In this document: piece by piece, positions 5,517 through 31,150 of the stretch
Layout: each line of letters starts with the position of its first letter
Numbering within the stretch: position 1 is the first letter of the stretch
NCBI GenBank assembly: GCA_030674475.1
Contig: JAUSCZ010000023.1
Span: forward strand, 87,819 to 151,818
Length of the DNA stretch: 64,000 nucleotides
Origin: Candidatus Omnitrophota bacterium
GTDB lineage: Bacteria > Omnitrophota > Gorgyraeia > Gygaellales > UBA12090
Direction of reading: 5' to 3'
Notes under the pieces: model-generated
Seen by the model: the letters and a program-made list of their open reading frames with translations, nothing else
The model's database searches: none
Told to the model about the DNA's origin: nothing
Made by a program: the position numbers and the translations under genes

Positions 5517-6419
5517 ATGCCCCCTAAGTCTAAAAAGCTAATCTCTCTTATCCTCTGCTTCTTACTTATCTTCCAGCAGACAGGCTTTGCCCAGACCGTC
5601 AGCCTTAACCTGGCTCACTATCTTAGTCAGGCCTCTTCGCCGGTAATCTCTGATACCTTCCGTCCAATCCACCTGCGCTATATCTCTTACGACAATCTAA
5701 GTAATAATTTTAAACTCCTCTTAGATAAGGGGGACTACTTAAAAGCATCGTCAGGCCGCCAGGATACAAAGTCGTCCGAGCAGGAAGATGATCTTAGTCG
5801 TCAGACGCAAGTTTTGCTGCGATATTTCTTTATCGGCTTAGCCCTGCCCAACAGTGCATTTTGGGTAAACCTTAGACCGGATGCTCCGGATAATATCATT
5901 GATGATGACTTGGCCAAGACCGACATCGGTAAGATACTCTTAGAAGCTGACCTCAACCTTAAGAAAGGCATCTCCAGCTTTACCTCACCCCAAACTCCGG
6001 AAGGCAAGGCCTATTGGGATAAACTTTACCAGAAGGCCGAAGAATTATACGGCACCAGCCAGATAACTATCCCCACCCTAACCCGTCCCTGGATAGTCCC
6101 GGATGAAATAATCTTAAGGGAATCTCCAGACACCAGCGCCTACGTCTACAAAGCCACCCTGAAGGTTATGCTGGAAGAAGACTATCTAGGAAAATCCGAA
6201 ACCCTAAACCCTGAATCCGAAACAAATTCCAATTTAAAAATCCAAAACCAAAAACCCTATGAATTCAAAGACCTAAGATTAAGAGAGCTCAATGAATACT
6301 CTACACAGCTGATCAAAGAGTTGATTATCCCCAAACTTACCCAGGAGATCAACTCTTCCAAGAGATACGCCCCCCCTGAGACAAGTCTATTACTCCTTAA
6401 TCTTAGCCCAGCATTTTAA
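5517..6419 (+). CDS. paralog 2 of the giant-protein family, N-terminal piece truncated by a +1 frameshift in a C7 tract
   Basis: Aligns with residues 1-270 of paralog 1 and paralog 3 up to RYAP. Paralog 1 has gctccccttag where this copy has gcccccccctgag (6370-6376). Confidence 0.55.
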   Translation: MPPKSKKLISLILCFLLIFQQTGFAQTVSLNLAHYLSQASSPVISDTFRPIHLRYISYDNLSNNFKLLLDKGDYLKASSGRQDTKSSEQEDDLSRQTQVLLRYFFIGLALPNSAFWVNLRPDAPDNIIDDDLAKTDIGKILLEADLNLKKGISSFTSPQTPEGKAYWDKLYQKAEELYGTSQITIPTLTRPWIVPDEIILRESPDTSAYVYKATLKVMLEEDYLGKSETLNPESETNSNLKIQNQKPYEFKDLRLRELNEYSTQLIKELIIPKLTQEINSSKRYAPPETSLLLLNLSPAF

Positions 6420-6621
6420 AAATAAGTTTAGAAACGAATCCGGCCCCTATTCAAATCTTATAGATTCAAGAGATCTTACTAATCTCACCTCTCAAGAGCC
6501 CTGGGATAAGCTTACTTATTTCAGGGAATATCAAAAATCTTTTCAAGAGGGCGAATATAATCTTAAAGCCAACCAGCCTACAGCCTATGGCCAGACTATC
6601 CGCAGGTATATAAGCGGGGGA

Positions 6622-8064
6622 GTGGAATTGGGAAATAGCGGTTCTTCAGCTCTGATTATTCCAACGAAAAATAACAGAATTATAGATCATCCTGAGATAT
6701 TAAAGGTTAGTAGTGTTATACTGCCAGGCGACCTTAAGGCGTTCGGTAGGTCAACCAGTAGTTCGGCAGTAAAATATGTGCCAGAGCCTGAAGATTTGCG
6801 GATTAGTGATAATCCTGAAATTAGCGGTATCTGGAGTAAAATGGTTGAGGAGAATCTGAAGTTAGGTGAATTTGCCCGGAAATTAGCCGAGTTTTCCCGT
6901 CGTTACGGCGTTATCAATAAATTCCCTCCGGATATATTAAATGAATTGCGCAAGTTTAGCGAGCTTTATAACATTCCGGATAGTAAAAACAAAGCCGATA
7001 AGGACACCATAGCTTATAATTTAGGTTTTATTACTCTTAATAGCGGTATAAAAGAAGAAGATGATTCGCTGTTAGTCGCGCAATTTAAATTCAACCTCTT
7101 GTTTTTAGTGAGCATGGTTAATGCCGGAATAAAACCAGTTGAACTTTTTAATCAATTTAAAGAGATTGATAAGGATAATTTAAATAAAATAGCTACTGGA
7201 GGAAAACTCAAAGATGGTAACGCGTTTTATGATTATACCTGGAAACCGTTTAAGGATATAAGAAGTATCGCTTGGAGTAGTCTTGGCAAAAAGAAAGTTA
7301 ACGATTTCTTTAAAAAATTTGAGTTTTTATTGAACCTTTTTCAGAAAGAACGTATATCATATCATGAGATTGCGCGCCGCCGCCATGCCGGGGAGAAACC
7401 GTATATGGTGATTTTAAAGCAATACCGCGGACAATTTCCCTCGGACATTATTAATTTTCCGCGGGAATATATTGAGCAGCAAGAACCTATTACCAAATAT
7501 GCCCCTGAAGGAGGGAAAATAGGAGATACAGTAAAAAACCCCGGCGGCTTGCTTTTACCGGGTGAATCTGCGGGAAAGGTAAGAAAATTCACGCTTAACG
7601 GCCTGGAGTTTTACGCGAAACGGGTTAATTCTTTATGGACGCGATATCCTGAGGAAGAAATCATGATTTCACTGAAAGCCGCCCAAAGTTTAAAGAAAGT
7701 CAGCCCTTATTTTGGCGTGCAAGAGTTTATCGGTATCGTTTATGACCAGGGAGCCTTTTACTTATTGTCTCGGGCTATTGTCAGTGAGCAGCCTAGACCA
7801 CCGGAAACAATAAGAGATTTGAATCGATTTAAATTAGACGTAGTAGATAGTATGGTTCGCTTAGGGATGCCGAAGCATGATATCCAAAAGGAGGTTGTTA
7901 ATAAATTTGGAGAGATAACTTGGGTATTTTTAGATTTTGAAACGTTTCCTTATCGTCTTGTCAAAGACGCAGCCAAAGCCCTGGAAGCCCTTAAGAGCAG
8001 AAATAACAAAGAAAAGGCAAATGAGAATACCGTATTACTAATGATAGTGATTCAGACGAGTTAA
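6622..8064 (+). CDS. paralog 2 middle piece; reading frame actually continues from the frameshift site near 6377 (YSLILAQHFKNKF...) through to 8064
   Basis: Translating 6377-6621 in this frame restores the conserved N-module sequence (LIDSRDLTNLTSQEPWDKLTYFREYQKSFQEGEYNLK...GQTIRRYISGG) seen in paralogs 1 and 3. Confidence 0.5.
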   Translation: MELGNSGSSALIIPTKNNRIIDHPEILKVSSVILPGDLKAFGRSTSSSAVKYVPEPEDLRISDNPEISGIWSKMVEENLKLGEFARKLAEFSRRYGVINKFPPDILNELRKFSELYNIPDSKNKADKDTIAYNLGFITLNSGIKEEDDSLLVAQFKFNLLFLVSMVNAGIKPVELFNQFKEIDKDNLNKIATGGKLKDGNAFYDYTWKPFKDIRSIAWSSLGKKKVNDFFKKFEFLLNLFQKERISYHEIARRRHAGEKPYMVILKQYRGQFPSDIINFPREYIEQQEPITKYAPEGGKIGDTVKNPGGLLLPGESAGKVRKFTLNGLEFYAKRVNSLWTRYPEEEIMISLKAAQSLKKVSPYFGVQEFIGIVYDQGAFYLLSRAIVSEQPRPPETIRDLNRFKLDVVDSMVRLGMPKHDIQKEVVNKFGEITWVFLDFETFPYRLVKDAAKALEALKSRNNKEKANENTVLLMIVIQTS

Positions 8065-8279
8065 TCTTTAAAGTTAAACCTAAAGCGGAAATATTAAAAA
8101 AGGCAATTGGGTCGCTTCAGCAAAAAGCAAAAAAAATAGAAGAAGAAGGAAAAGCAATAGAAATAGAAAATGAAAAAGTAAATATTTTTGAAAAATATAC
8201 AGCATTCAAGGATGTAATAGATAAAAATATTTTAAACGATCCTGAATTAATAAAGAAAGAGATAAAAAAATTTGGAGAA

Positions 8280-9068
8280 TTGTTAGATAAGTTTGGCGCG
8301 AAGGTGAAAAACATAGTGAAAAATAACAATGAAGAAAAAGTGTCTTTTTCAGGAATAAGTATTTCTATATTTTACGATTTAGTAGATAAATTGAATAAGG
8401 CCAGGCACTACCCGTATTATATTGATTATGGAGCTAAAGTGAATAGTTTTATAAGGGTGATGGATGCGTATATAAAATTATTGTCAGATATTCAAAACCC
8501 GGGAAAAATTGAGGAAGGATGCGCAGAAAGGATGGATGAGTCAAGGAGTGAGCCGGAATTAACCTATTGGTTATTGAAAGAATATAATAAATTGCCTCAA
8601 GAAAAAGAATCTATGAATTCTTCCCCCGTCTTAGCAAGTGAAATCGGTAGAAATATTTTTGCGCCAATTAAGAAAAAAGGCGGTATTGACCTTACCGCCT
8701 TACCCATAACCACCCAATCCCACTTAAATCAGCCTTTGACGGATAATATACCTATAGCAGGCTCGGCCTTAAATCTCAATCGCGCCCTGAGCGATAGTCA
8801 AAGGGTTAATTTAGATAAGGAGCTTCGGGATATTCAGAATATGCTTAAGGCTGGGATTATGCCTTCAGGTGAAAGAATAAAGGAATATGCCTTAGCCTCT
8901 TCGTCTTTGGGGCCGGAAGACCACAACTGGGAAATTGACCGTCTGCTGGGCTGTATTGCTGATGTTTTTAGATTAGAAGAAGAAAAGGCCAAACCCACCC
9001 CGCAAATCTTAAAAGATGTGCTTATTCTGCTGGAATCGGATAACCCCGCCCCGTTACAAATTCTCTGA
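8280..9068 (+). CDS. paralog 2 C-terminal piece carrying the conserved family C module; separated from the middle piece by a second frame change around 8036-8064
   Basis: GGIDLTALPITTQSHLNQPLTDNIPIAG...LKAGIMPSGERIKEYALASSSL...LGCIADVFRLEEE is about 85% DNA-identical to the 3' end of paralog 1. The frame is open back to 8039. Confidence 0.55.
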   Translation: MLDKFGAKVKNIVKNNNEEKVSFSGISISIFYDLVDKLNKARHYPYYIDYGAKVNSFIRVMDAYIKLLSDIQNPGKIEEGCAERMDESRSEPELTYWLLKEYNKLPQEKESMNSSPVLASEIGRNIFAPIKKKGGIDLTALPITTQSHLNQPLTDNIPIAGSALNLNRALSDSQRVNLDKELRDIQNMLKAGIMPSGERIKEYALASSSLGPEDHNWEIDRLLGCIADVFRLEEEKAKPTPQILKDVLILLESDNPAPLQIL

Positions 9069-9226
9069 AACCGTATTTTATGCTATAAGTCTATTGTAAT
9101 TTATTACCGTATGTGAGGTCTCTGCGGCAAGAAACGGGAATTTGTAACGGGGCCCGCCCAGGAATTACAACTTGCCTTAGCCGGGAAACGGTAAATAATA
9201 TTTCTAATTAACCAACTAATTGCGGG

Positions 9227-9242
9227 TGTGAATTATTTCACA
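9227..9242 (+). promoter_or_regulatory. perfect CRP/FNR-family palindrome TGTGA-N6-TCACA upstream of the nuo promoter
   Basis: tgtgaattatttcaca read directly. Its centre lies 15.5 bp upstream of the -35 hexamer. Confidence 0.45.
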
Positions 9243-9249
9243 GAATCGT

Positions 9250-9278
9250 TTGACAGTAATAGGCTTTTGTGTTAAATT
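9250..9278 (+). promoter_or_regulatory. sigma70-like promoter for the nuo operon (TTGACA-N17-TAAATT)
   Basis: ttgaca at 9250-9255, 17-nt spacer, taaatt at 9273-9278, about 57 nt upstream of the nuoA ATG. Confidence 0.5.
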
Positions 9279-19050: not shown

Positions 19051-19435
19051 TTTCCCCTGATAATTGACTGGCTACCCTAATTGTGATATTTTTATCGACA
19101 ATGGCAATGGCTGTGATAAACTGGGTGTATAAATTGGCCAAAGTAGCTTTGTTACGAGAGTGGAACTATTAGCGGGGTATTGGGATAGATTGGTAAGGCA
19201 ATGGAAGCGAATGATAAAGTTTTGGATTCGTCAGTCATTTGATAGCATCGAACAAGTTGAAAATAGATACGCGAATTTAACCGTGCCTGTTGAAGTGGCT
19301 TTGCAGTAGTTTCCACGAATCAACTTGTTGATAAGGGTACCAATGAAACTATGGAGAGAAACGAGGGATTAAAATCACTCACATTCAGGCGGTGTCATCA
19401 ATAGGGCATTGTGGCCACTGGGGAGCAAGGATATA

Positions 19436-19465
19436 ACACCTTGGCCTATCGGAAGGCCAAGGTGT
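19436..19465 (+). promoter_or_regulatory. perfect 11-bp-arm inverted repeat (acaccttggcc-tatcggaa-ggccaaggtgt) immediately upstream of the hsdM ribosome-binding site
   Basis: Read directly; followed by AAGGAG at 19476-19481 and GTG at 19489. Confidence 0.4.
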
Positions 19466-19488
19466 TCGCTTGTGCAAGGAGATCTCGA

Positions 19489-21495
19489 GTGACAATCAAT
19501 TTTAAAGAAAGCGCAAATTTTATCTGGGGTATTGCCGATCTTTTGCGCGGTGACTATAAACAGTCCGAATATGGTCGTATAATACTGCCTCTCACGGTTT
19601 TACGGCGTTTGGACTGTGTGCTTGAGCCGACCAAGGAAGCGGTTTTGTCATATCTTCCGCAGACCAAAGGCTTATCTCCGGAAGCCGCTGAGACGGTGCT
19701 TAAGAAAAAAGCGAAGTTGTCATTTTGTAATAAGAGCAAATTTGATTTCCAAAAACTGGTTGCCGACCCGAACGATATCGCCGTTAATCTTCGCAATTAC
19801 ATCAATGGTTTCTCCAAAAATGCCCGCAATATTCTGGAGCATTTCAACTTTGATGACCACATCGAGCGGCTCGATAAATCAAACCTCTTATATATGATCG
19901 TCAAGCGTTTTGCCGAAGTTGATTTGCATCCGAACAAGATCCAAAACATCGAGATGGGCTATATATTTGAAGAGCTTATCCGCAAATTCGCTGACTTATC
20001 AAACGAGACTGCCGGAGAACACTTTACGCCTCGTGAAGTTATTCGGCTTATGGTTAATATTCTCTTTCTAAACGACAAGGATGTCCTTACAAAGAAAGGA
20101 ATCGTTAAAACCTTATATGACCCGGCCTGTGGAACCGGCGGCATGCTTTCTGTGGCAGAAGAATATCTTCGCGAGCTTAACCCCGATGCGGATTTACGCG
20201 TATTCGGTCAAGAGTTAAATCCCGAGTCTTACGCTATTTGCAATTCCGATATGCTCATCAAGGGGCAGAATACCGATCACATCAAGTTTGGCAACTCTTT
20301 TACGCAAGACGGCCTTAAGGATGAAAAGTTTGATTATATGCTTAGCAATCCGCCTTTTGGCGTGGAGTGGAAAAAGATAGAAGAAGAGATTACTAAAGAA
20401 TACGAGCAGTTAGGTTTCTCCGGCCGTTTTGGCGCGGGGTTTCCGCGGATTAGCGACGGGTCTTTTCTGTTTCTACAGCATATGATTTCAAAGATGAAGC
20501 CGGAGAATGGCGGCGCGCGGCTGGGGATAGTCTTTAATGGTTCGCCTCTTTTTTCAGGCGGAGCCGGAAGCGGTGAAAGCGAAATCCGCAAATGGATCAT
20601 TGAAAATGATATGCTTGAGGCCATTATCGCGATGCCGGATCAGCTTTTCTATAACACCGGTATTTCAACTTATATCTGGATTGTTACCAACCGTAAGCTC
20701 AAGGATCGTAAAGGAAGAATTCAACTTATCAACGCGGTCGGATTCTTCAAGAAGATGTCCCGGAGCCTCGGCAACAAACGTAATGAGATCAGCGATGAAC
20801 ATATCGCGGAGGTCACAAAGATTTATGGCGCGTTTAAAAATGGGGAATTCAGCAAGATCTTTCCTAATGAGTATTTTGGGTATACCCGTGTAACGGTCGA
20901 GCGGCCATTGCGGTTGAATTTTCAAACTTCCAATGAGAGGATCTCCCGGCTGGATCAGCAAACAGGATTCGTTAATCTTGCCAAGTCTAAGAAAAAAGGC
21001 AGGGAAGGTATCAAAGAGGTTGAGGAAGGCGAAAAATCACAGAAAGCAATCAAAGCTATGCTTGCGGGAATAGACGGAACTCATTTCTATAAGAACCGGG
21101 AGAAGTTTGTAAGGGTTATGGAAGCGGCTATAGATAAGGCTGAATTAAAGATTAAAGCGCCGGTAATAAAAGCTATTCTTGGGGCCCTTTCGGAGAGGGA
21201 TGAGACAGCGGATGTGTGCAAGGACAGGGATGGTAAGCCGGAACCCGACAGCGAATTACGCGACTGTGAGAATGTGCCGCTCGCAGACAACATTGAAACC
21301 TATTTTAAGCGTGAAGTTCTACCTCACGTGCCGGACGCGTGGATGGACAGAGGCAGGGACAAGGTTGGATATGAGATCAACTTTACGAAGGAATTCTACA
21401 AATACAAACCATTGAGAAGCATCAAGGAGATACAAAAAGACATTTTAGAATTAGAGCAACAAACAGAAGGTTTATTAAAGGAGATTTTGCAATGA
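19489..21495 (+). CDS. hsdM: type I restriction-modification N6-adenine DNA methyltransferase subunit M (ORF is open from 19411; the GTG at 19489 has a perfect AAGGAG box 7 nt upstream)
   Basis: HsdM N-terminal domain (NFKESANFIWGIADLLRGDYKQSEYGRIILPLTVLRRLDCVL), motif I DPACGTGGML, motif IV NPPFG. Confidence 0.9.
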   Translation: MTINFKESANFIWGIADLLRGDYKQSEYGRIILPLTVLRRLDCVLEPTKEAVLSYLPQTKGLSPEAAETVLKKKAKLSFCNKSKFDFQKLVADPNDIAVNLRNYINGFSKNARNILEHFNFDDHIERLDKSNLLYMIVKRFAEVDLHPNKIQNIEMGYIFEELIRKFADLSNETAGEHFTPREVIRLMVNILFLNDKDVLTKKGIVKTLYDPACGTGGMLSVAEEYLRELNPDADLRVFGQELNPESYAICNSDMLIKGQNTDHIKFGNSFTQDGLKDEKFDYMLSNPPFGVEWKKIEEEITKEYEQLGFSGRFGAGFPRISDGSFLFLQHMISKMKPENGGARLGIVFNGSPLFSGGAGSGESEIRKWIIENDMLEAIIAMPDQLFYNTGISTYIWIVTNRKLKDRKGRIQLINAVGFFKKMSRSLGNKRNEISDEHIAEVTKIYGAFKNGEFSKIFPNEYFGYTRVTVERPLRLNFQTSNERISRLDQQTGFVNLAKSKKKGREGIKEVEEGEKSQKAIKAMLAGIDGTHFYKNREKFVRVMEAAIDKAELKIKAPVIKAILGALSERDETADVCKDRDGKPEPDSELRDCENVPLADNIETYFKREVLPHVPDAWMDRGRDKVGYEINFTKEFYKYKPLRSIKEIQKDILELEQQTEGLLKEILQ

Positions 21496-22583
21496 AAAAA
21501 CCATATGCTCCGCAATCATTGCCGCTTGATTCATTAGATTGGGTTAGATTTGTTTCGCTTATAGGACCGGCCAATGCCGAATTGGCGCGCTATGACGGAA
21601 TTCTGCAAGGGATTCTTAACCCTAGAGTACTGCTTTCCCCGCTAACAACCAATGAGGCAGTTCTTTCTTCAAAAATTGAAGGAACGCAGGCTTCGTTACA
21701 GGAAGTTTTGGAGTTTGAGGCATCCCCTGATTTAAGAACAGAGAAGCGAGAAGATATTCTGGAGATTCTCAATTATCGTAAGGCGATGCAGTTGTCCGTA
21801 GATTGGCTTAAGTCCAAGCCCATTACGCTTAATATGATCAAGGATGTTCATAACACGCTTTTAGACAGCGTGAGAGGTAAGGATAAAGCCCGCGGGCAAT
21901 TTCGCAGGTTACAAAATTGGATTGGGAAACCCGGGACGCCCATGGAAGAAGCTATGTATATTCCTCCAGACCCTATGTTTCTCATGGATCATTTATCCAA
22001 TTTTGAGAAATATATCCATTTTGATGAAAAAGACCGGCTTGTTCAGTTAGCCATCGTTCACGCGCAGTTTGAAATTATTCATCCTTTTTTAGATGGGAAT
22101 GGACGTTTGGGGCGTATTCTGATACCACTCTTTCTTTATGAGAAGAAAGCATTAGGGTCGCCGATGTTTTATATCAGTGAATATCTGGAATCCCATCGCG
22201 ATGAATATTACGCCAGGTTGAACGCGATAACCTCCGATGGGCAATGGAACGACTGGATTGAGTTTTTCTTAAAAGCCGTGCTTGAACAGGCAAAGAATAA
22301 TAGCGCAAAGGCAAAGGCTATCTTAGATCTTTACAATGCCAAAAAAGATAAGATTATGGCCGTAACTCATTCGCAATATACAGTTAAAATTTTGGATACT
22401 TTATTCAAGACGCCGATTTTTAATATGACTGATTTTATAAAAATTTCAGGTATTCCCAAAGCAAGCGCAACCCGAATTCTGAATATTCTTAAAAAAGAAG
22501 AAATGCTGGCGGTTTTACATCAAGGGAGAGGGAGATCTCCCGGGGTTATGGCTTTTACCAAATTATTAAAGATTTGTGGCTAA
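21492..22583 (+). CDS. Fic/Doc family protein (AMPylase-type, with C-terminal winged-helix) inserted between hsdM and hsdS
   Basis: Canonical Fic motif HPFLDGNGRLGR; overlaps the hsdM stop by 4 nt. Confidence 0.85.
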   Translation: MKKPYAPQSLPLDSLDWVRFVSLIGPANAELARYDGILQGILNPRVLLSPLTTNEAVLSSKIEGTQASLQEVLEFEASPDLRTEKREDILEILNYRKAMQLSVDWLKSKPITLNMIKDVHNTLLDSVRGKDKARGQFRRLQNWIGKPGTPMEEAMYIPPDPMFLMDHLSNFEKYIHFDEKDRLVQLAIVHAQFEIIHPFLDGNGRLGRILIPLFLYEKKALGSPMFYISEYLESHRDEYYARLNAITSDGQWNDWIEFFLKAVLEQAKNNSAKAKAILDLYNAKKDKIMAVTHSQYTVKILDTLFKTPIFNMTDFIKISGIPKASATRILNILKKEEMLAVLHQGRGRSPGVMAFTKLLKICG

Positions 22584-22735
22584 TAAAATTGCCTTTATCG
22601 TACATAACAATTCTTGTGTATATTCTATTGCGCGCAAATTACTTTGTGTCTCGTAATATCATATAAATGAGACACAAATTGGTTTATGAATAATGCGTGA
22701 AACACGAGCCATTTATAGCATAACTCATTATTTAA

Positions 22736-22861
22736 CAGACGGTTATGAAATACATAAAAATAGAATATCAGTCTTTACGTAGCCTTGAGGAAATTAGCAA
22801 AGATATCCTGGCCCTGGAAAAAGGAACTGAGGGGTTGATGGATGAGATTTTGGGAGGATAG
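22736..22861 (+). pseudogene. remnant of a second hsdM 3' end (about 40 codons)
   Basis: Translation TVMKYIKIEYQSLRSLEEISKDILALEKGTEGLMDEILGG parallels the C-terminus of the intact HsdM (TKEFYKYKPLRSIKEIQKDILELEQQTEGLLKEILQ). Confidence 0.6.
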
Positions 22862-22866
22862 ATAGT

Positions 22867-24213
22867 ATGAGTAACAATGATAATTATAGGATTGGAGAAC
22901 ATATCCGTGAAGACGGAAAGAAATATGCGGAGTTTGATACATTGGGTTTTGACTCTACGCGGGAAATTTTCATAAAAGTCATTAAGCCTGCGGGGCCTCC
23001 TCTGACGATTGGACTATATGGCTCGTGGGGAAGCGGAAAAACTGAGATGATAAAGGCGCTGGAAGAGGATTTAAAAACCAGCGACTGTTTAACGTTGATT
23101 TTTGATGCGTGGAAATATAGATATGAATGCAACTTGATTTTGCCTCTTATCTGTGCCCTTCAGCGGGAGCATCTATCTAAAATTGAGGATGCCAAAGATA
23201 GCGCTAAGAAGATAGTAACAAGCGCCGCGCTGGTTATGGCTAATCAGTTTCTTAAAAATAAGATAGGAGTTAATATCGGAGAAGTAAAGATGGCTCTCCA
23301 GACTTATGAGGAGGAATACAAACACTACAAGAAATACGATGATAATGTTGCGTTGATAGAGAAAGAATATAAGGATTTTATTGGGGTCCTTTTGAATAAA
23401 ACAGAGAAGAAAAAATTAACAGTATTCATCGATAATCTTGATCGTTGCCTTCCGGATATTACTGTAAACCTTTTAGAGGATATTTCTAGTTTTCTTTCGA
23501 TTCAAGGGGTGCCATGTATTTACGTGTTAGCAATGGATAAAGAGAATGTTATTAAGGCAATAAATCATCGTTACCCGGATTTTGACGGAATGCATTATTT
23601 AGAGAAAATCGTACATATCGGATTGAAGATGCCTTTGCCACGTAAAAGAGAAAATCACAACTCCAGTTATGGGACATATCATTTTCTCAAAAGATATGAG
23701 TGGGGTAAAAAATATGAAGCAGTTTCAAAATCTGGGGATTCAAGGGATAAATTGTTTGAAAGATTAGTTGCTATCGATAATGTGTTTGGAGGTGACCTTT
23801 TAGGAAATCCTCGGCGTGCAGAGCGTATCGTGAATAAGCTGATGATGTTAGAGATAATGGGGTTATTCCAGGCAGAAAGAAGCCATGACGACGTCTCTAT
23901 GTTGATTTTTTTATTGCTTCTTTGCGAGTATTTCCCGAAAATTTACGAGTCTTTAAAAGATAATGCGGATTTTAAATATCTGTTGGAAAATTTACAGATG
24001 TGCAAACAAAAAGAAACCACGCCATTTAATCAAAGAAAAGAAAGAGAAAGGCTTGAACCAAACTCGCGCATTCCAAACGAGATTATCTTTAATGCATATT
24101 GCGACGATGAAAAATTTTTCCATTTTATTAGAGACTTTGCAGATTTGGCAAATATTAATGATCTGCCAAAAAGGTTGATGGAAATAAAAAGTAATTTGGG
24201 TTATATCGGATGA
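22867..24213 (+). CDS. KAP-family P-loop NTPase
   Basis: Walker A GLYGSWGSGKT near the N-terminus, Walker B-like VFIDNLDRC, 448 aa; typical KAP NTPase architecture. Confidence 0.7.
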   Translation: MSNNDNYRIGEHIREDGKKYAEFDTLGFDSTREIFIKVIKPAGPPLTIGLYGSWGSGKTEMIKALEEDLKTSDCLTLIFDAWKYRYECNLILPLICALQREHLSKIEDAKDSAKKIVTSAALVMANQFLKNKIGVNIGEVKMALQTYEEEYKHYKKYDDNVALIEKEYKDFIGVLLNKTEKKKLTVFIDNLDRCLPDITVNLLEDISSFLSIQGVPCIYVLAMDKENVIKAINHRYPDFDGMHYLEKIVHIGLKMPLPRKRENHNSSYGTYHFLKRYEWGKKYEAVSKSGDSRDKLFERLVAIDNVFGGDLLGNPRRAERIVNKLMMLEIMGLFQAERSHDDVSMLIFLLLLCEYFPKIYESLKDNADFKYLLENLQMCKQKETTPFNQRKERERLEPNSRIPNEIIFNAYCDDEKFFHFIRDFADLANINDLPKRLMEIKSNLGYIG

Positions 24214-24229
24214 TGGCGAAGAAGAACTT

Positions 24230-25474
24230 ATGAAAAGGTATCCTGTATATAAAAATTCGGGGATTGAGTGGATTGGGAAAGTGCCGCAAGATTGGCAAGT
24301 TAATCGCCTGAAAACAGTCTGTACTTTTACCTATGGAGATTCTTTGGCGGATGAAGATCGGATTGAGGGCGGCATCCCTGTTTATGGCTCAAACGGAATT
24401 GTCGGTTATCATAACAAAGCAATTACCCATAAGCCGTGCATTATTATCGGGCGCAAAGGTTCATACGGCAAAGTGAATTTTTCGCAAACAGAATGCTTCC
24501 CAATTGATACTACCTATTTTGTTGATGATCGTTCAGCAAAATGTGATTTGAAATGGCTTAGCTATGTTTTGCCGCTTTTAGAACTGGATAAATTTTCCAA
24601 GGACACCGGCGTTCCAGGGCTTAATCGCGAAGATGCGCATGATAAAAGAGTGCCAATTCCTGAAAGTGAGGTTAAAAAAGTCATTACTGATTATCTTAAC
24701 CGCAAGACGGCGCAGATTGATGACCTGATTGCTAAAAAAGAGCGCATGATTGAGCTTCTCAAGGAGGAGCGGACGGTGATTATCAATCAGGCTGTGACAA
24801 AGGGGCTTAATCCCAAAGCTGAAATGAAAGAATCTGGCATTGAATGGTTAGGTAGGGTACCGAAACATTGGAGACTAAAACGGCTGAAATATGTCGTCAA
24901 TATCAATCCAGTAAGACCAAATACAATTTCAGAAGAATCAAAGGTTATTTTTATAGCCATGGAATCTATGAGTACTGACGGAACTTATGACAATTCTGTT
25001 ATGCGTTCATATTTAGAAGTAAAGACCGGATTTACTTATTTTGCTGAAGACGATGTAATTTTTGCTAAAATAACACCATGTTTTGAAAATGGCAAGGGGG
25101 CATTACTCCGTAATTTAGGATCTGCCATTGGCTTTGGCTCAACAGAATTTCATGTTTTGCGTTCAGTGAGAAATGAAACAATTCCAGAATATTTGTATTT
25201 TCTTACAATCTCTGGGTTATTCCGGAGATTAGGCGAAGCATTTATGCAGGGCGTGGCTGGACAGAAAAGAGTAACAAACGATTTTGTGCAAAATTTTCTT
25301 ATTGGAGTGCCTCCGATTGATGAGCAAGAGGCCATTTCCTCTTTTCTTGCAGATAAAATAAGAAAAATCGATGCGCAAGTGGCGCGAGAACAAAAATCAA
25401 TCGAGCTGCTCAAAGAATACCGCACTTCTTTGATCTCTGAAGTAGTAACGGGGAAAATCTGTTTATGCGAGTAA
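24230..25474 (+). CDS. hsdS: type I restriction-modification specificity subunit S (two target-recognition domains)
   Basis: Two variable TRDs separated by the conserved central repeat (TAQIDDLIAKKERMIELLKEERTVIINQAVTKGL) and C-terminal repeat (IRKIDAQVAREQKSIELLKEYRTSLISEVVTGKI). Confidence 0.85.
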   Translation: MKRYPVYKNSGIEWIGKVPQDWQVNRLKTVCTFTYGDSLADEDRIEGGIPVYGSNGIVGYHNKAITHKPCIIIGRKGSYGKVNFSQTECFPIDTTYFVDDRSAKCDLKWLSYVLPLLELDKFSKDTGVPGLNREDAHDKRVPIPESEVKKVITDYLNRKTAQIDDLIAKKERMIELLKEERTVIINQAVTKGLNPKAEMKESGIEWLGRVPKHWRLKRLKYVVNINPVRPNTISEESKVIFIAMESMSTDGTYDNSVMRSYLEVKTGFTYFAEDDVIFAKITPCFENGKGALLRNLGSAIGFGSTEFHVLRSVRNETIPEYLYFLTISGLFRRLGEAFMQGVAGQKRVTNDFVQNFLIGVPPIDEQEAISSFLADKIRKIDAQVAREQKSIELLKEYRTSLISEVVTGKICLCE

Positions 25475-25483
25475 TGTTACGAG

Positions 25484-26692
25484 GTGTTGATTATGCCACA
25501 TAGTATTCCGGCACTTGTTACGCCATCGGTTATGAGGTGGGCGCGAGAACAGGCAGGGTTTGACATCCCGACTGCTGCGCATCGTATTGGACGTTCAGAA
25601 GCAGATATTCGAGCATGGGAAAATGAAGCGACAACGACAAGGCCAACTTTGGCGCAAGCTCGTAAAGCAGCTGAAGTATATCGTAGGGCACTGGCAGTTT
25701 TTTATCTATCGGAACCACCCAAAGGATACCAAGTTATTAGGGACTTTAGACATTTAACAGATGCCAGTCTGCAAGCATTTAGTCCTGAATTGATGCAGGT
25801 AATTAATTTATTAGAATATAGACAAGAGTGGTTAAGAGAGTGGCGGATTGAAGAAGGGGAAAAAAAGATTGATTTTATTGGGTCTATAGCGATTACTATG
25901 GCGCCAGATAAAGTCGCTGGTGAAATAAAAGATAAGCTAGGCGTTGATTTCAAAGAGCATTTTAAGCGTCGGACTCGCGAGGATACATTATTGTTATGGG
26001 TTCGTTATGCAGAAGCTTTAGGCATTAATATCTGTCGTCAAGGCGAAATTGCATGTGAAGAAGCTAGGGGCTTCGTACTAACGGATGAATACGCCCCCTT
26101 TGTGTATATTAATAGTTCTGATGCAAAGGTGGCCCAACTTTTTACCTTAGTTCATGAGTTGGTACATTTGTGGCTTAACTTGTCAGGTATTTCTAATCTT
26201 GAAGGTATTGGGCGCACTGGGAAGACAGAAAACGACCGGATTGAAATATTTTGCAATAAAGTCGCATCGTTAGTATTGCTGGATGATAAACTATTCTTAG
26301 AGAAATGGGCAAAAACAGATACAAACGACCCTCTTGAAAAAAAGATAGCAGATGTCGCTAACATTGCAAAGGTTAGCGATGAAGTAGTTGCTAGGCGTCT
26401 TTTAGACAAGAGTATAATTACCATTGATAAATACGTTGATTTACGCAGGCAGTTTCAAGAGCGCTGGATACAGCATAAAAAAGACGCAAAGATTAGAAGA
26501 CAGGATTCCAAGGGTTATCCTTCTCCGCACTTAATGGCTGTCTTGGGAAATGGAAGGCTTTTTACCACAGCTGTCTTAGATTCATATTCTGGGGGATTTT
26601 TGTCGAGTACAATCGCGGCTAGTTTGTTAAATGCGAAAGTTAACAATTTCCAGAAGCTATCCGTATATGCCGGTATGGGTGAGGGGAAATAA
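25484..26692 (+). CDS. ImmA/IrrE-family zinc metallopeptidase fused to an N-terminal Xre-type HTH (COG2856-like)
   Basis: HEXXH motif HELVHLWL, N-terminal HTH region, 402 aa. Confidence 0.7.
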   Translation: MLIMPHSIPALVTPSVMRWAREQAGFDIPTAAHRIGRSEADIRAWENEATTTRPTLAQARKAAEVYRRALAVFYLSEPPKGYQVIRDFRHLTDASLQAFSPELMQVINLLEYRQEWLREWRIEEGEKKIDFIGSIAITMAPDKVAGEIKDKLGVDFKEHFKRRTREDTLLLWVRYAEALGINICRQGEIACEEARGFVLTDEYAPFVYINSSDAKVAQLFTLVHELVHLWLNLSGISNLEGIGRTGKTENDRIEIFCNKVASLVLLDDKLFLEKWAKTDTNDPLEKKIADVANIAKVSDEVVARRLLDKSIITIDKYVDLRRQFQERWIQHKKDAKIRRQDSKGYPSPHLMAVLGNGRLFTTAVLDSYSGGFLSSTIAASLLNAKVNNFQKLSVYAGMGEGK

Positions 26693-27186
26693 TGGACTTG
26701 AATAAGAAATACTGTCTTGATGCCAATGCATTTATTGAGCCATGGAATAAATATTTCACTATTAACCGGTGTCCTGGATATTGGGATATTTTAGAGGATT
26801 TGGGCAAGAAGCTAATTATTTTTTGCCCTGATCAAGTTAAGCGAGAAATTGATAGGGTCGACGATGGTCTAAAATCGTGGCTCGATGCGAGGCATTTCTT
26901 CTTTAGGCAAGAAACAGAGGTTGTACAGCAACATGTGCGTACGATTTTAAAAGCATTTCCTCAGTTAATCAATGTTGGGGCAAATCGGTCTATGGCCGAT
27001 CCATGGGTTATTGCTCACGCAATGGCTGAACAGGCGGTTGTAGTAAGTAAAGAATATCTGGTGCGTCCGGGACAGAAGAGTGCACAAATAAAGGTCCCAG
27101 ATGTGTGTAAGCATTTCAAGATCGCCTGTATTAATGATTTTAGTTTTATTGATGAGCTTGGCATAAAATTTAAGGCTAGTATTTAA
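26692..27186 (+). CDS. DUF4411-family protein (recalled as a predicted PIN-like nuclease partner of ImmA/IrrE; not verified)
   Basis: 164 aa; start overlaps the ImmA/IrrE stop (ATGA). Family assignment is from memory of the sequence pattern and the usual ImmA/IrrE pairing. Confidence 0.45.
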   Translation: MDLNKKYCLDANAFIEPWNKYFTINRCPGYWDILEDLGKKLIIFCPDQVKREIDRVDDGLKSWLDARHFFFRQETEVVQQHVRTILKAFPQLINVGANRSMADPWVIAHAMAEQAVVVSKEYLVRPGQKSAQIKVPDVCKHFKIACINDFSFIDELGIKFKASI

Positions 27187-27619
27187 ATTTGCGGATGAGG
27201 CAGTTTAAGTGCTATTTATAGTTTTTTTGAAGGGTTAATGAGGAGCTGGGGGGATTGATAAAATGAAAAGGGGCTGTTAGGTTCGGGCCAACAACCCCTC
27301 AGAAATGCCGACGGCTTTACTTGGTAAAGCCTTTATATAGTATATCATAGCATAGCATATATGCAAAAAAATAAAATTTTAGTGGATGGTGCAAAGTTGT
27401 TATTGAAATACGTGCATCAACAATGCAAGAAATATTACTCCAACCGCTGGTTGGAGTAATCGGCTGAGATGTTAGCTATATTTTGTTTTGGGCCTGATTT
27501 TTTATGTAACGCGATGTAACTGAAAGTGTTTAAAAATATAAACATTATTACAATACATTGATAATAAATGAGTTATGAGCATAAAGCATGTATCTTATAT
27601 GTAATTTTTGAAATAATTT

Positions 27620-30600
27620 ATGAGGCTTAGAATGGTTTCAATTATTAACGAAAAAGCTTTTGAAGAATCCATCGAACAAAGCCTGATTGATCATGGCGGC
27701 TATGTGAAGGGCGATCCGAATAATTTCAGTCGGGATCTGGCGATTGATCAAGCGGTCCTGTTTCAGTTCATCAAGGATACCCAGAAGAATGTTTGGGATA
27801 GCTTGACGGCTATCCATGGCGCGGATGTTGAAAAGAAGTTTTTATATCGTCTCAATCAAGAACTGGACGCGCGTGGAATGCTTGATTGTTTGCGCCGCGG
27901 CGTCACTGATTATGGCAAGAAAATCATGCTCGCCTATTTTAAGCCGGTCAGCAAATTAAACCCGGAAACCCAGAAACTGTTCGATAAAAACATCCTCACC
28001 GTTACCCGGCAGGTTCATTACAGCACCAAAGATGAAAGCTCGATAGACATGCTTTTGTCTATCAACGGCCTTCCTGTGGCTACCATTGAGTTAAAGAACC
28101 CGTTTACCGGTCAGGATGTGGATGATGCCAAGCGGCAGTATAAATATGACCGCGACGAGCGTGAGCTTTTGTTTCAGTTTAAGAAGCGCGCCCTTGTCCA
28201 CTTTGCCGTGGATACGGATGTTATTTACATGACTACGCGCCTTCAGGGGAGCAAGACAAGGTATTTGCCTTTTAATAAAGGCTATAACAAAGGTTCCGGG
28301 AATCCCCCGAATCCAAGCGGCCATAAGACAGCGTATTTATGGGAAGTCGTCTTGGTAAAAGATAGCTGGATGGATATCTTGGGAAGATTTTTGCATTTAG
28401 AAGTTGAAGAAAAGGCTTTTGATGGTAGAAAGTTCAAGATTGAGACACTGATATTCCCGCGCTATCACCAGCTTGATAGCGTCCGGAAGCTTTCCTCCGA
28501 TGCTCTTGCAAATGGAGCAGGAAAGAATTATTTGATTCAACACAGCGCCGGGAGCGGAAAAAGCAATTCTATCGCATGGCTTGCCTATCATTTGGCGGGC
28601 CTGTATGACAAAGGCGATAAGCGGATATTTGACGCAGTGATTGTGATCACCGATCGCATTGTTCTGGATAAGCAGTTACAGGATACGATTTATCAATTTG
28701 AGCACAAGTTAGGGGTGGTTGAGAAGATTGACAAAGATTCTACCCAATTGGCTCAAGCTCTCACCAGCGGAACGAATATTATTATCACCACGCTTCAAAA
28801 ATTTCCCTTTGTTTTGGATAAGGTTGGGGCATTGCCTAGGCGAAATTACGCGGTTATTGTTGATGAGGCGCATAGCTCGCAGGGTGGCGAATCCGCTAAA
28901 AAAATGAAAGACGTTCTTTCGGCCCTTGATAAAACCGAGATCGTATCGGAGAAGGCCGATGAGGACGATGATATTGAAGATGAAATCCGTGAATCCATGC
29001 TTAAACGGGGCCCTCGGCCAAATTTGAGCTTCTTTGGATTTACCGCAACACCCAAAGCAAAAACGCTGGAGTTTTTTGGACAAAAGGGCATAGACGGCAA
29101 ACCACAACCATTTCATCTTTATTCTATGCGGCAGGCGATCGAAGAAAGATTTATTTTTGATGTCCTTGAAAACTACACTAGCTATCAAACATTTTTCCAG
29201 TTGTCCAAGAAGATCGAAGACGACCCGAATATGAATAAGAAAAAGGCCGCCTGCGCGATTGCGCGCTTCTTGACGCTCCATCCGTATAACTTGGCGCAGA
29301 AGACCGAGGTCATGATTGAGCATTTCCGGCAGGTCACTATGAAAAAGATCGGTGGTAAAGCTAAAGCGATGGTAGTTACGGCTTCGCGCGAGCATGTGGT
29401 GCGGTATAAACATGAGTTTGACCGTTATCTAAAAGAAAAAGGGTATAAAGATATAAAGGCTCTCGTTGCTTTTTCCGGAAAAGTTTTATTGGATGGAATT
29501 CCTCCGGAATATACCGAAGAGGGTATTAATACCTATATTGATAAACAAGGGCAAACCAGATATGTTAGGGAAAAGGAGTTACCTGGGAAGTTTGCTACTT
29601 CTGAATATCAGATTTTACTTGTAGCAGAAAAATATCAGACCGGCTACGATGAGCCGCTTTTGCATACCATGTATGTGGATAAGCGGCTTGACGGCGTTAA
29701 AGCGGTGCAGACGATGAGCCGTTTAAACAGGACGTGTCCGGGTAAAGAAGATACATTTATCTTGGACTTCGTTAATAAGCGCGAAGACATATTAGCGGCT
29801 TTCCAGCCATATTATGAGCAGACCCAGTTAAGCGATGTTACGGATCCGAACAAGCTTTACGACCTCAAAACCAAGCTGGATTCGTTTAGGGTGGTATATC
29901 AATCAGACATTGATGCATTCTGTGTCGTATTCTTCAGGAATAAAGAATTACAGACGAAGCGCGAGCATGCTCAATTGAATTCAATAGTAGATGTGGCGGT
30001 TGAGCGGTTTAAGGTAATTGAAAAAGATGAGCACAAAGAAGATTTTGTCAATACCTTGGGCGTATTTGTTCGGCTGTATGCGTTCTTGGCGCAGATTATG
30101 CCCTTTCAGGATATTGAGCTCGAGAAATTCTACGCCTATTCCCGACTATTGTTGAAAAAACTTCCGGGGCCTGACCGCGGCGAAAGGTATCATCTTGGCG
30201 ATGAGGTCGCTCTTGAGTATTACCGCCTGCAAAAAATAGCTGATGGCAAAATTCAATTGCAAAAGGATTCGGGTGCGGCTATCGAGCCGATTTCAGAGGC
30301 CGGAACAAAGAAAGACAAAGACGAATACGCCTTGTTGTCCGAAATAATCAATCTTCTTAATGACAGATTCGGGACTGATTTTACCGAAGCCGACAAGCTT
30401 TTCTTCGATCAGATTGAAGAAGAAATGGTTATGGATGAGAAATTAGGCGTTCAAGCCAAGACCAACACAATGGATAATTTCAAATACGGGTTTGAAGATG
30501 TGTTTATCGCGAAGCTTGTTGACCGGATGGATCAGAATCAGGATATCTTCAACAAAATTATGGATGACAAAGCTTTCGCGGCTGTCGTAAAAGACTATTT

Positions 30601-31150
30601 ATTGAAAAAGGTTTACGATCGCTTAAATAAGGACAGTGGCGATCAGCCAGAACGTCCGTTGTTTTTTAAAGATGTGAGTCCGGATGAAGAGGTTGCGGAG
30701 GACCAGAAGTATGTTGATTTTCTGCCGGTATATTCGCTCCAGGCTGTAGCGACAAGCTTTGGTAAGGAAGAGCACGTGGAAATGCTTGGATGGAAGAAAA
30801 TAAAAAATAAACGGCTGAATAAAGACATGTTTATTGCTCAGGTTGTTGGTAAGTCAATGGAGCCGACAATTTTGGATGGTAGTTTTTGTCTTTTCCGCTT
30901 TGAGCGGGGCGGCTCGCGCAATGGTTTGGTGGTGCTTGTCGAATCTCGGTTGGTTACCGATCCTGAAACCAGCCAGAAATTTACAATCAAGCGCTATAAA
31001 AGTGAAAAAGAAACTTTGCCCGATGGCGGGTGGAGGCACAAGCGCATAATACTCTCACCTGATAACAAAGACTTTAAAGATATCACTCTGGAGAATGTGA
31101 GCGGTGATGATTTTAGAATCGTAGCAGAATTTGTAGAGGCATTATCTTAA
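27620..31150 (+). CDS. hsdR: type I restriction enzyme R subunit with a C-terminal LexA/UmuD-like S24 serine peptidase domain fusion
   Basis: SF2 helicase motifs (GSGKS Walker A, VIVDEAHSSQ DEAH box, GFTATP, QTMSRLNR). The C-terminal ~110 aa carry S24 motifs: VVGKSMEPTILDGSFCLF (Ser nucleophile), FTIKRYK (catalytic Lys), RIILSPDNKDF...GDDFRIVAEFVEAL. Confidence 0.85.
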   Translation: MRLRMVSIINEKAFEESIEQSLIDHGGYVKGDPNNFSRDLAIDQAVLFQFIKDTQKNVWDSLTAIHGADVEKKFLYRLNQELDARGMLDCLRRGVTDYGKKIMLAYFKPVSKLNPETQKLFDKNILTVTRQVHYSTKDESSIDMLLSINGLPVATIELKNPFTGQDVDDAKRQYKYDRDERELLFQFKKRALVHFAVDTDVIYMTTRLQGSKTRYLPFNKGYNKGSGNPPNPSGHKTAYLWEVVLVKDSWMDILGRFLHLEVEEKAFDGRKFKIETLIFPRYHQLDSVRKLSSDALANGAGKNYLIQHSAGSGKSNSIAWLAYHLAGLYDKGDKRIFDAVIVITDRIVLDKQLQDTIYQFEHKLGVVEKIDKDSTQLAQALTSGTNIIITTLQKFPFVLDKVGALPRRNYAVIVDEAHSSQGGESAKKMKDVLSALDKTEIVSEKADEDDDIEDEIRESMLKRGPRPNLSFFGFTATPKAKTLEFFGQKGIDGKPQPFHLYSMRQAIEERFIFDVLENYTSYQTFFQLSKKIEDDPNMNKKKAACAIARFLTLHPYNLAQKTEVMIEHFRQVTMKKIGGKAKAMVVTASREHVVRYKHEFDRYLKEKGYKDIKALVAFSGKVLLDGIPPEYTEEGINTYIDKQGQTRYVREKELPGKFATSEYQILLVAEKYQTGYDEPLLHTMYVDKRLDGVKAVQTMSRLNRTCPGKEDTFILDFVNKREDILAAFQPYYEQTQLSDVTDPNKLYDLKTKLDSFRVVYQSDIDAFCVVFFRNKELQTKREHAQLNSIVDVAVERFKVIEKDEHKEDFVNTLGVFVRLYAFLAQIMPFQDIELEKFYAYSRLLLKKLPGPDRGERYHLGDEVALEYYRLQKIADGKIQLQKDSGAAIEPISEAGTKKDKDEYALLSEIINLLNDRFGTDFTEADKLFFDQIEEEMVMDEKLGVQAKTNTMDNFKYGFEDVFIAKLVDRMDQNQDIFNKIMDDKAFAAVVKDYLLKKVYDRLNKDSGDQPERPLFFKDVSPDEEVAEDQKYVDFLPVYSLQAVATSFGKEEHVEMLGWKKIKNKRLNKDMFIAQVVGKSMEPTILDGSFCLFRFERGGSRNGLVVLVESRLVTDPETSQKFTIKRYKSEKETLPDGGWRHKRIILSPDNKDFKDITLENVSGDDFRIVAEFVEALS

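Follow-up and report, generated by a model that had tools for sequence, protein, structure and literature searches.

Within a 64,000-nt stretch of a Candidatus Omnitrophota contig (JAUSCZ010000023.1, positions 87,819 to 151,818; hereafter the window), a short open reading frame (ORF) of 38 codons lies between a fic gene and a gene for a KAP-family P-loop NTPase, inside a type I restriction-modification (R-M) island. We consider it likely that this ORF is the displaced native 3' end of the methylase gene hsdM, of which it keeps the last 32 codons, and that it was orphaned when a module of about 1.36 kb carrying fic recombined into the hsdM tail. The junction is a real but fairly ordinary recombination scar. 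The evidence for it lies in the homology of the ORF to the HsdM C-terminus, the co-linearity of the locus with one that has no module, the boundaries of the module, the pattern of differences across codon positions and the recurrence of the same junction elsewhere.

Positions 22736-22864 translate as QTVMKYIKIEYQSLRSLEEISKDILALEKGTEGLMDEILGG followed by a stop. The peptide quoted in a first-pass annotation of this sequence spans 22739-22858, with its stop at 22859-22861, while the ATG-started ORF runs from 22745 to 22861, begins 161 nt past the fic stop and encodes a peptide that opens with MKYIKIEYQSLRSLEEISK. That annotation had noticed a parallel between the peptide after fic and the C-terminus of HsdM, and the parallel holds up well against shuffled controls. 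Smith-Waterman alignment places the peptide on exactly the last 30 residues of HsdM, ungapped, with 17 of 30 residues identical and a score of 93; 5000 shuffles of the peptide scored 28.7 ± 4.1 with a maximum of 62, none reaching 93. When the window is translated in six frames, the frame of hsdM is the only other one to score highly. Homology to hsdM sets in only at codon 7-8 (~22763-22766); codons 1-6 of the ORF (MKYIKI) match any hsdM at 3-4 of 18 nt and have no similarity to it. Upstream of 22745 there are stops in all three frames and HsdM similarity in none. The match, tail B (22766..22861, forward strand; YQSLRSLEEISKDILALEKGTEGLMDEILGG and a stop), is preceded by junction DNA (22709..22765, forward strand) that includes the ATG at 22745 and the first seven codons of the ORF (MKYIKIE). 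These are the marks of a gene remnant: C-terminal homology that runs to the stop, an upstream gene that is missing, and synteny with a full-length hsdM in a related locus, L002. The arrangement is not an assembly artefact; it is identical in an independent Logan assembly (L001), and diverged copies are present in three more contigs from other samples.

Sequence searches with the peptide itself return little. Pfam assigns no domain to the 38-aa ORF, a word-indexed search for homologues of the 40-aa peptide gave no match, and comparison of the 38-aa peptide with 1.84 billion cluster representatives gave three matches in all: one of its own kind (P0244, 38 aa, 74% identity), a 105-aa HsdM C-terminal-like fragment, and a weak match to an unrelated 622-aa protein (38% identity, in six matched stretches). 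Public databases also hold many proteins of 50-120 aa (P0126, P0124-P0243) that are HsdM C-terminal fragments. Most of these are probably genes cut at contig edges; at least one, P0126, in which MTINFKE is joined to NVPL, resembles an internal in-frame deletion that fuses the first hsdM codons to the last ~74.

The second copy of the tail is the resident one, tail A (21421..21495, forward strand; IKEIQKDILELEQQTEGLLKEILQ and a stop), with which hsdM now ends. Over 30 aligned codons tail A and the remnant are 59% identical at the DNA level, and identity at codon positions 1, 2 and 3 is 57, 90 and 30%, respectively. Because third positions are near random and second positions almost invariant, the two tails appear to have undergone long divergence, each coding for a functional protein throughout, a pattern that rules out a recent duplication. 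One of two histories put forward in the first-pass annotation was the insertion of fic with duplication of the hsdM tail; the copies would then have diverged in place. Two tail copies in direct orientation do flank the insert, and in another carrier of the module, contig L003, the first half of the resident tail is identical to that contig's own remnant at 40 of 45 nt. However, the divergence of the tails in the window far exceeds that of the spacer between fic and the remnant (K 0.28, see below), the second half of tail A matches the module in other loci at 92%, and the remnant is orthologous to the L002 tail, so that the two copies would come from two different hsdM alleles; the similarity within L003 is better explained by gene conversion or by the position of a crossover. 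We therefore regard local duplication as very improbable.

The hsdM alleles that match the remnant better than the intact copy does were found through the context of the KAP gene and not through peptide searches. L002 is a contig of a Planctomycetia metagenome-assembled genome (MAG), found via its KAP protein, a relative with 80% aa identity. In L002 the KAP gene directly follows a full-length hsdM, its ATG lying one base past the hsdM stop; this hsdM ends in KPLRSLEEIRKDILALEKETEGLMGEVLGG (...KYKPLRSLEEIRKDILALEKETEGLMGEVLGG) and, like the remnant, has GGGAGG in its tail ahead of the KAP ATG. By blastn, window 19487-21410 corresponds to L002 3988-5911 (82.4% identity) and window 22784-23981 to L002 5922-7115 (82.1%), and the ~1.37 kb between the two aligned blocks has no counterpart in L002. 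Excision of 21421-22783 (1363 nt) in silico yields an in-frame HsdM of 669 aa that is 90.4% identical to that of L002; the native part of hsdM is 90.7% identical to it in amino acid sequence over 644 residues. After the shared KYKPLRS, the remnant agrees with the L002 tail at 21 of 25 residues and the resident tail at 14 of 24, which is the outcome expected if the remnant is the native hsdM tail of the locus and the orthologue of the L002 tail. An exact look-up of the KAP protein returned the same locus only, and a scan of viral contigs for KAP gave no match.

Co-linearity with L002, identity in the variable part of hsdM, and a switch at informative sites lead us to group the hsdM body, the remnant and the KAP gene as probably native, and to treat fic, the spacer and the ~20-25 codons with which hsdM now ends as probable newcomers. 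In its variable C-terminal region (20760-21230) the window hsdM is 81-90% identical to L002 as against 52-76% to L003, and at informative sites the window turns from L002-like to module-like at ~21410-21435. The 3' end of hsdM is confirmed as the site of exchange, as the first-pass annotation had proposed. Its other suggested history, replacement of most of an older hsdM by a new hsdM-fic module, is at odds with a body that is co-linear with L002 up to the switch; only the last ~20-25 codons are incoming. Such a whole-gene replacement, with just the last 32 codons of the older gene surviving, would account for a remnant that is the tail of an allele other than that of the resident tail. Moreover, hsdM bodies in this family are all ~80-87% identical over the conserved N-terminal and catalytic part, where 82% co-linearity is consequently no proof of orthology. 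The identities in the variable region nevertheless go against it, as does the KAP gene past the remnant, which is related to L002 to the same degree as the hsdM body, and as does the late onset of module-like sites, high identity to L003 and to a further carrier, L092, beginning only at ~21440. In our view whole-gene replacement is improbable.

The closest relatives of the window Fic (95% aa identity) are encoded on contigs L003/L091 and L092. The window and these contigs share one order: hsdM with tail A, fic overlapping it by ATGA, spacer, junction, and a further hsdM tail. At the junction between spacer and remnant in these contigs, ATG AAA CAT ATG AAA ATA GAA precedes the hsdM tail; the codons read MK(H/Y)(M/I)KIE across carriers and are conserved between the window and L003 and L092 at 18 of 21 nt. 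The presence of the same junction in all carriers indicates that it was made in one historical event. The idea of a recombination junction at this place, put forward in the first-pass annotation, holds. Downstream of the remnant the loci differ. The L092 remnant (...EAEGLMDEVLGL and a stop) directly overlaps the start of hsdS, which is an ordinary hsdM-hsdS junction, and in L003/L091 a 0.39-kb insert with a 121-codon ORF lies between remnant and hsdS. That ORF matched no family in Pfam or PADLOC, and a reading of it as 'RAYT-like', suggested by a motif, is rejected on this ground. Similarity between the window and L003 ends right past the remnant stop and resumes at the start of hsdS, with the hsdS start, the M78 gene and the DUF4411 gene 81-86% identical. 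As the module and its junction are the same while the hsdM 3' regions and the downstream genes differ between the window, L003/L091 and L092, the module has moved between type I loci, probably through homologous recombination within the tail.

Identities vary along the module and its flanks. For the pairs window-L003, window-L092 and L003-L092, in that order, they are 0.83, 0.86 and 0.91 in hsdM just before the tail; 0.69, 0.69 and 0.74 in a resident 'core' at 21400-21441; 0.92 in each pair in the second half of tail A; 0.94, 0.94 and 0.98 in fic; 0.76, 0.74 and 0.91 in the spacer; and 0.74, 0.63 and 0.81 in the second half of the remnant. At 21442-21491 the window shares 92% identity with the tails that precede fic in both L003 and L092. 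The core, between flanks of 0.83-0.92, is the most diverged segment in all three pairs (0.69-0.74), and such a hot spot would look like what is expected where differing hsdM backgrounds meet a shared module. A separate Omnitrophota locus (L004/L005) has a 70% identical fic upstream of hsdM (in L004, fic at 6001-7092 and hsdM at 7270-9276); this fic has a TATAAT-type promoter to itself and is followed by the same palindromic element, so this Fic family joins type I operons in more than one arrangement.

Rates of substitution set the remnants apart from fic and the spacer. Between the window and L003, fic has a dS of 0.24 and an omega of 0.10, and the spacer has a K of 0.28; as the latter is close to the dS of fic, the spacer behaves as neutral DNA that shares its ancestry with fic. 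In the remnants, 13 of ~22 synonymous sites differ (pS 0.60) as compared with 11 of 92 non-synonymous sites, for an omega of ~0.10. Synonymous divergence several times that of the neutral DNA nearby could not have built up in place after the shared junction was formed, and points to independent import of the right-hand part of each remnant from a functional hsdM tail. In codons 7-20 of the remnant, 10 sites side with L003 and L092 and 1 with L002, while from codon 21 to the stop 6 side with L003 and L092 and 10 with L002. This is suggestive of a mosaic, module-like to ~22800 and L002-like beyond. The remnant was probably the left homology arm in exchanges of the genes downstream of it, a role that would explain the open frame without selection on the peptide.

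Selection on the peptide is the basis of another explanation, in which the 38-aa ORF encodes a functional small protein, either an antitoxin to SoFic or a free peptide that imitates the C-terminal helix of HsdM and so tunes how the methylase or restriction complex assembles. The model for the former is AS1, a 47-aa ORF downstream of SoFic in E. coli H397 that is reported to counter SoFic toxicity (PMC12249575), and in both cases a short ORF directly follows a SoFic-type gene. In the window, L003, L091 and L092 the ORF is intact with a conserved ATG, and its low omega between the window and L003 would also fit. However, the window ORF, at 38 aa against the 47 aa of AS1, is an hsdM tail, and it does not accompany SoFic homologues in other contexts: no homologous ORF follows fic in L004, L006, L087-L090 or in 80 metagenome Fic loci. 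An orphan tail that is missing after other SoFic homologues is not a conserved partner of fic. The excess of remnant pS over fic dS and spacer K argues for separate import as opposed to selection in place, the 1.84 billion cluster representatives contain no wider family, and the Shine-Dalgarno pairing is weak. The energy of the duplex with the anti-Shine-Dalgarno sequence is -2.7 kcal/mol at the ORF's own start, compared with -10.2 kcal/mol at that of KAP and a range of -8 to -10 across hsdM, fic and KAP. The ORF is thus unlikely to be coding, both versions of the small-protein hypothesis are likewise unlikely, and we infer that the remnant has no coding function.

Several points weigh against our account. 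All four carriers keep the ORF intact and its ATG conserved, and the differences between copies favour synonymous sites, which fits a translated peptide as well as it fits import from functional tails; the weak Shine-Dalgarno is compatible with translation, since hsdS and the M78 gene have sites just as weak. For the crossover within the remnant, the Fisher p of 0.0076 is uncorrected and belongs to the best of ~30 cut points. Core 21400-21441 resembles neither L002 nor the module (29/45). No recombinase or mobility gene accounts for the making of the first spacer-tail junction. Finally, the polarity of the event is taken from parsimony and one unoccupied relative, which is 82% identical and assigned to another phylum, and L002 could in principle have lost fic through recombination between tails.

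If polarity were reversed in this way, the two-tail state would be ancestral and L002 derived from it. The direct tail repeats would permit such a deletion, and only one unoccupied locus has been found. Yet reversal merely pushes the insertion back in time, as a two-tail structure still requires a foreign tail and an inserted fic. In addition, the module is 92-98% identical between carriers as against ~82% for its flanks in comparison with L002, or lower between carriers, and a module more alike than its flanks is younger than they are. We thus judge loss in L002 to be unlikely, and infer that the event was an insertion, with homologous recombination as its mechanism.

The history that we propose for the displaced hsdM end starts from an operon in which, as in L002, hsdM would have run straight into the KAP NTPase gene and then hsdS. 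A module of ~1.36 kb would have recombined into the region encoding the HsdM C-terminal tail, ~25 codons ahead of the stop. It would have been composed of the last ~20-25 codons of another hsdM allele, a SoFic-type fic coupled to them by the ATGA overlap, ~125 nt of fic-associated palindromes and ~55 nt of DNA of unknown origin. The C-terminal helix of HsdM is needed for docking on HsdS in type I enzymes. Because the module supplies a substitute tail with a stop codon, hsdM stays full length, and fic would be translationally coupled to it. The native tail, shifted downstream, would still provide the sequence upstream of KAP, including the strong Shine-Dalgarno site GGGAGGA (22852..22858, forward strand), which is read from the sequence inside the last codons of the remnant. 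An intact methylase matters here, as the loss of methylase beside an active restriction subunit would be harmful.

As to mechanism, the switch on the left and that on the right lie almost at one point of the tail (the codons for ...LRS...KDI), so that the event acts as a precise insertion flanked by two diverged tail copies of ~90 nt. The copies on either side of fic could then serve as homology arms, the module and its junction being present in at least three hsd backgrounds, and breakpoints would be expected in the codons for Y(K/Q)PLRSLEEIRKDI. The module may have entered by a double crossover with a donor that was already two-tailed, or by a single crossover with a circular intermediate; the data fit both routes alike. 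The insert (21421-22783) contains the tail, fic and non-coding DNA only, with no recombinase or integrase gene, and no identical core was found at its ends, where the tail copies are 59% identical and match at 12 of 21 nt at the junction by hand count. An integrase- or transposon-type insertion was rejected on both counts, which make homologous or illegitimate recombination more likely.

Substitution of a gene's 3' end by an incoming element has well-known precedents. In E. coli, e14 and phage 21 integrate in the 3' end of icd, and genomic islands do so in the 3' ends of tRNA and tmRNA genes; the substitute 3' end keeps the target gene intact, while the original end is orphaned at the far side of the element. 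The fic module shares with them both the 3'-end substitution and the orphaned old end. These elements, however, carry an integrase gene and are bounded on either side by identical copies of an att core, whereas the 1.36-kb fic insert has fic only and flanking copies that are 59% identical.

The setting is also a known one. Type I R-M operons can have other defence genes embedded in them, PrrC among them. Further examples are TgvAB of V. cholerae VPI-2 (PMC11411939) and DarTG2 in enteropathogenic E. coli (PMC12255303). R-M embedding is described in a 'guilt-by-embedding' survey (bioRxiv 10.1101/2024.01.29.577857), and one paper in this literature calls the embedding site a potential recombination hot spot. 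As in these systems, the window has unrelated defence genes between its hsd genes, in this case SoFic, a KAP NTPase (PDC-S20) and a pair formed by an HTH/M78 gene and a DUF4411 gene. It differs from them in that a scar marks where the cassette entered, inside the hsdM coding sequence and before the next gene. In the preprint the words 'recombination' and 'remnant' are not present, and a search for terms of mechanism in it and in PMC12255303 found no scar described; text searches of the literature returned no description of hsdM tail remnants. The scar is accordingly a gene-end remnant at a recombination junction, which is of a known kind, in the known setting of defence genes embedded in R-M operons.

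Partial hsd copies next to an expressed gene have another parallel in the silent partial hsdS genes of phase-variable type I systems, the epigenetic invertons (PMC7672463), and in both cases they are substrates for recombination. In the invertons, however, the copies are target-recognition halves with inverted repeats that are swapped by a site-specific invertase with a change of specificity, whereas the window has a direct repeat of the hsdM tail, no invertase and no predicted change of specificity.

That R-M operons embed defence genes is known, and the route by which these enter is rarely visible; the present locus keeps a readable record, in which a SoFic module would have recombined into hsdM within its coding sequence, supplying a new end and stranding the old one. 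It provides a testable model, with three hsd backgrounds and an unoccupied site, in which recombination in conserved tail-coding sequence drives cassette exchange in R-M operons. For annotation, the 38-codon ORF in related contigs should be labeled as an hsdM fragment and not as a hypothetical protein.

A more speculative extension, which we put forward tentatively and consider doubtful as it stands, is that the tail copies make SoFic a portable, homology-flanked cassette that hops between type I operons of different bacteria, with the ends of hsd genes in general as docking sites for a changeable set of defence genes. Recombination would occur in the tail 'core', hsdM would always be restored by the substitute tail of the cassette, and clean loss of the cassette would be possible. 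This direction is also suggested by hsdM tail-end vestiges that lie ahead of hsdS in L002 and L003, by the orphaned head of an hsdR in L003, and by the differing content between tail and hsdS. A still bolder version is that a free 38-aa tail peptide is made and might modulate either HsdM-HsdS assembly or SoFic toxicity.

The hsdM vestiges are short and are found past the inserted gene. At L002 7330-7355, just before the start of hsdS, the sequence GAT AAA GTA CTG GTT TTA TGA (DKVLVL and a stop) matches L092 at 14 of 20 nt, and a database HsdM fragment, P0162, also ends in DKVLVL. At L003 2760-2787, KDEVLGL and a stop, identical to the end of the L092 remnant, is fused to the end of the 121-codon ORF. 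At the corresponding place in the window (24205-24232) a vestige of the hsdM tail end before hsdS is no longer recognisable. The vestiges in L002 and L003 suggest that the KAP gene and the 0.39-kb insert may likewise have entered within the last codons of hsdM. The hsdR head is a 43-codon ORF (L003 5809-5940) located right after the DUF4411 gene and opening with the first ~24 residues of HsdR (MSKTNEKVFEEAIEQSLIDRGGYIK... as compared with ...NEKAFEESIEQSLIDHGGYVK in the window HsdR), after which it diverges; a gene with AlbA_2 and HATPase_c_4 domains follows. It resembles an orphan hsdR head beside an inserted gene, a mirror-image scar, on a contig that stops before any full hsdR.

The fic gene (21492..22583, forward strand) encodes Fic_N and Fic domains and is of the SoFic type, a Fic/DOC AMP-transferase. 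SoFic is a known single-gene anti-phage defence family, to which the window fic is assigned on the strength of its sequence: the PADLOC SoFic model gives a full-length match (residues 3-361, E=4.6e-112), SoFic chains in the PDB match at E~1e-34, the motif HPFxxGNGR is intact, and HPFLDGNGRLGR is invariant across the alignment. One protein from a Candidatus Omnitrophota MAG is 100% identical to it. Neither E. coli genomes nor plasmids hold a close copy at the DNA level, the former giving no match to the window fic and the latter matches that are too distant.

The gene is followed by a palindromic element (22613..22708, unstranded) with three inverted repeats of the TTGTG...CACAA type, the best of which, at 22644-22677, is TTGTGTCTC-N16-GAGACACAA. 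SoFic-type fic genes of many phyla have such an element downstream, in many contexts (for example L004 and L006-L089) that include unrelated ones. It is usually made up of two or three inverted repeats, in which the outer TTGTG/CACAA is conserved and the inner arm bases covary between loci (GTGTCTCAT/ATGAGACAC, GTGGAGCG/CACTCCAC, GTGTTGCAT/ATGCAACAC). By strict criteria, the density of palindromes is 4.0 per kb in the 200 nt after fic versus 0.08-0.10 per kb elsewhere, and at least one palindrome follows fic in 52 of 84 loci. An Rfam search of 22450-22950 found nothing near any gathering score. A recurrent asymmetry between half-sites (TGTATCA versus TGTCTCA) is of a non-wobble kind, and this favours a protein-binding DNA site over an RNA hairpin, perhaps one for the C-terminal winged-helix domain of Fic. 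The element may coincide in part with the AS1 ORF that has been reported after SoFic in E. coli (PMC12249575). In the window, a scan of 21300-23000 for promoters and terminators found nothing above shuffled expectation, and no KAP promoter can be claimed.

The island as a whole sits between nuoN (ending at 18919) and an ABC-F ATPase gene (beginning at 31307), and its genes, all on the forward strand, are in the order hsdM, fic, a 283-nt gap (from the fic stop at 22583 to the KAP start at 22867), the KAP NTPase gene, hsdS, the HTH/M78 gene, the DUF4411 gene and hsdR. With hsdM, an hsdS of two target-recognition domains and an hsdR of helicase/nuclease type in one locus, it is a type I R-M system. 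The identities of the genes around the remnant are as first annotated, namely hsdM (N6_Mtase and HsdM_N domains), fic (Fic_N and Fic) and KAP NTPase (KAP_NTPase). The mechanical ORF of hsdM is 19411-21495, with a probable start, judging from relatives, at GTG 19489; its native part (19489..21420) reaches FTKEFYKYKPLRS, and the TGA of tail A shares the ATGA overlap with the ATG of fic. The KAP gene (22867..24213) matches the PADLOC candidate PDC-S20 at E=3.9e-44, and hsdS (24230-25474) matches Methylase_S of Pfam in two stretches.

Between hsdS and hsdR are embedded the HTH/M78 peptidase gene (25484-26692) and the DUF4411 gene (26692-27186), both recognised by their Pfam domains. They share an ATGA, the former encodes an HTH domain with an M78/IrrE-type peptidase, and the pair is 81% conserved with L003/L091; the M78 peptidase has weak PADLOC matches to RmrA and CapP-like models. 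A non-coding stretch of 433 nt (27187-27619), which holds a GC-rich inverted repeat (CTCCAACCGCTGGTTGGAG) and AT-rich DNA before hsdR, separates the DUF4411 gene from hsdR and is not present in L003, where the hsdR head lies 2 nt after DUF4411. The hsdR gene (27620-31150), identified by its Pfam domains and the PADLOC REase_I model, has a product with a C-terminal Peptidase_S24 (LexA/UmuD-like) domain (residues 1056-1171, E=5.9e-07); the same fusion, which is unusual for a type I restriction subunit, is seen as a weak match in the hsdR of L005.

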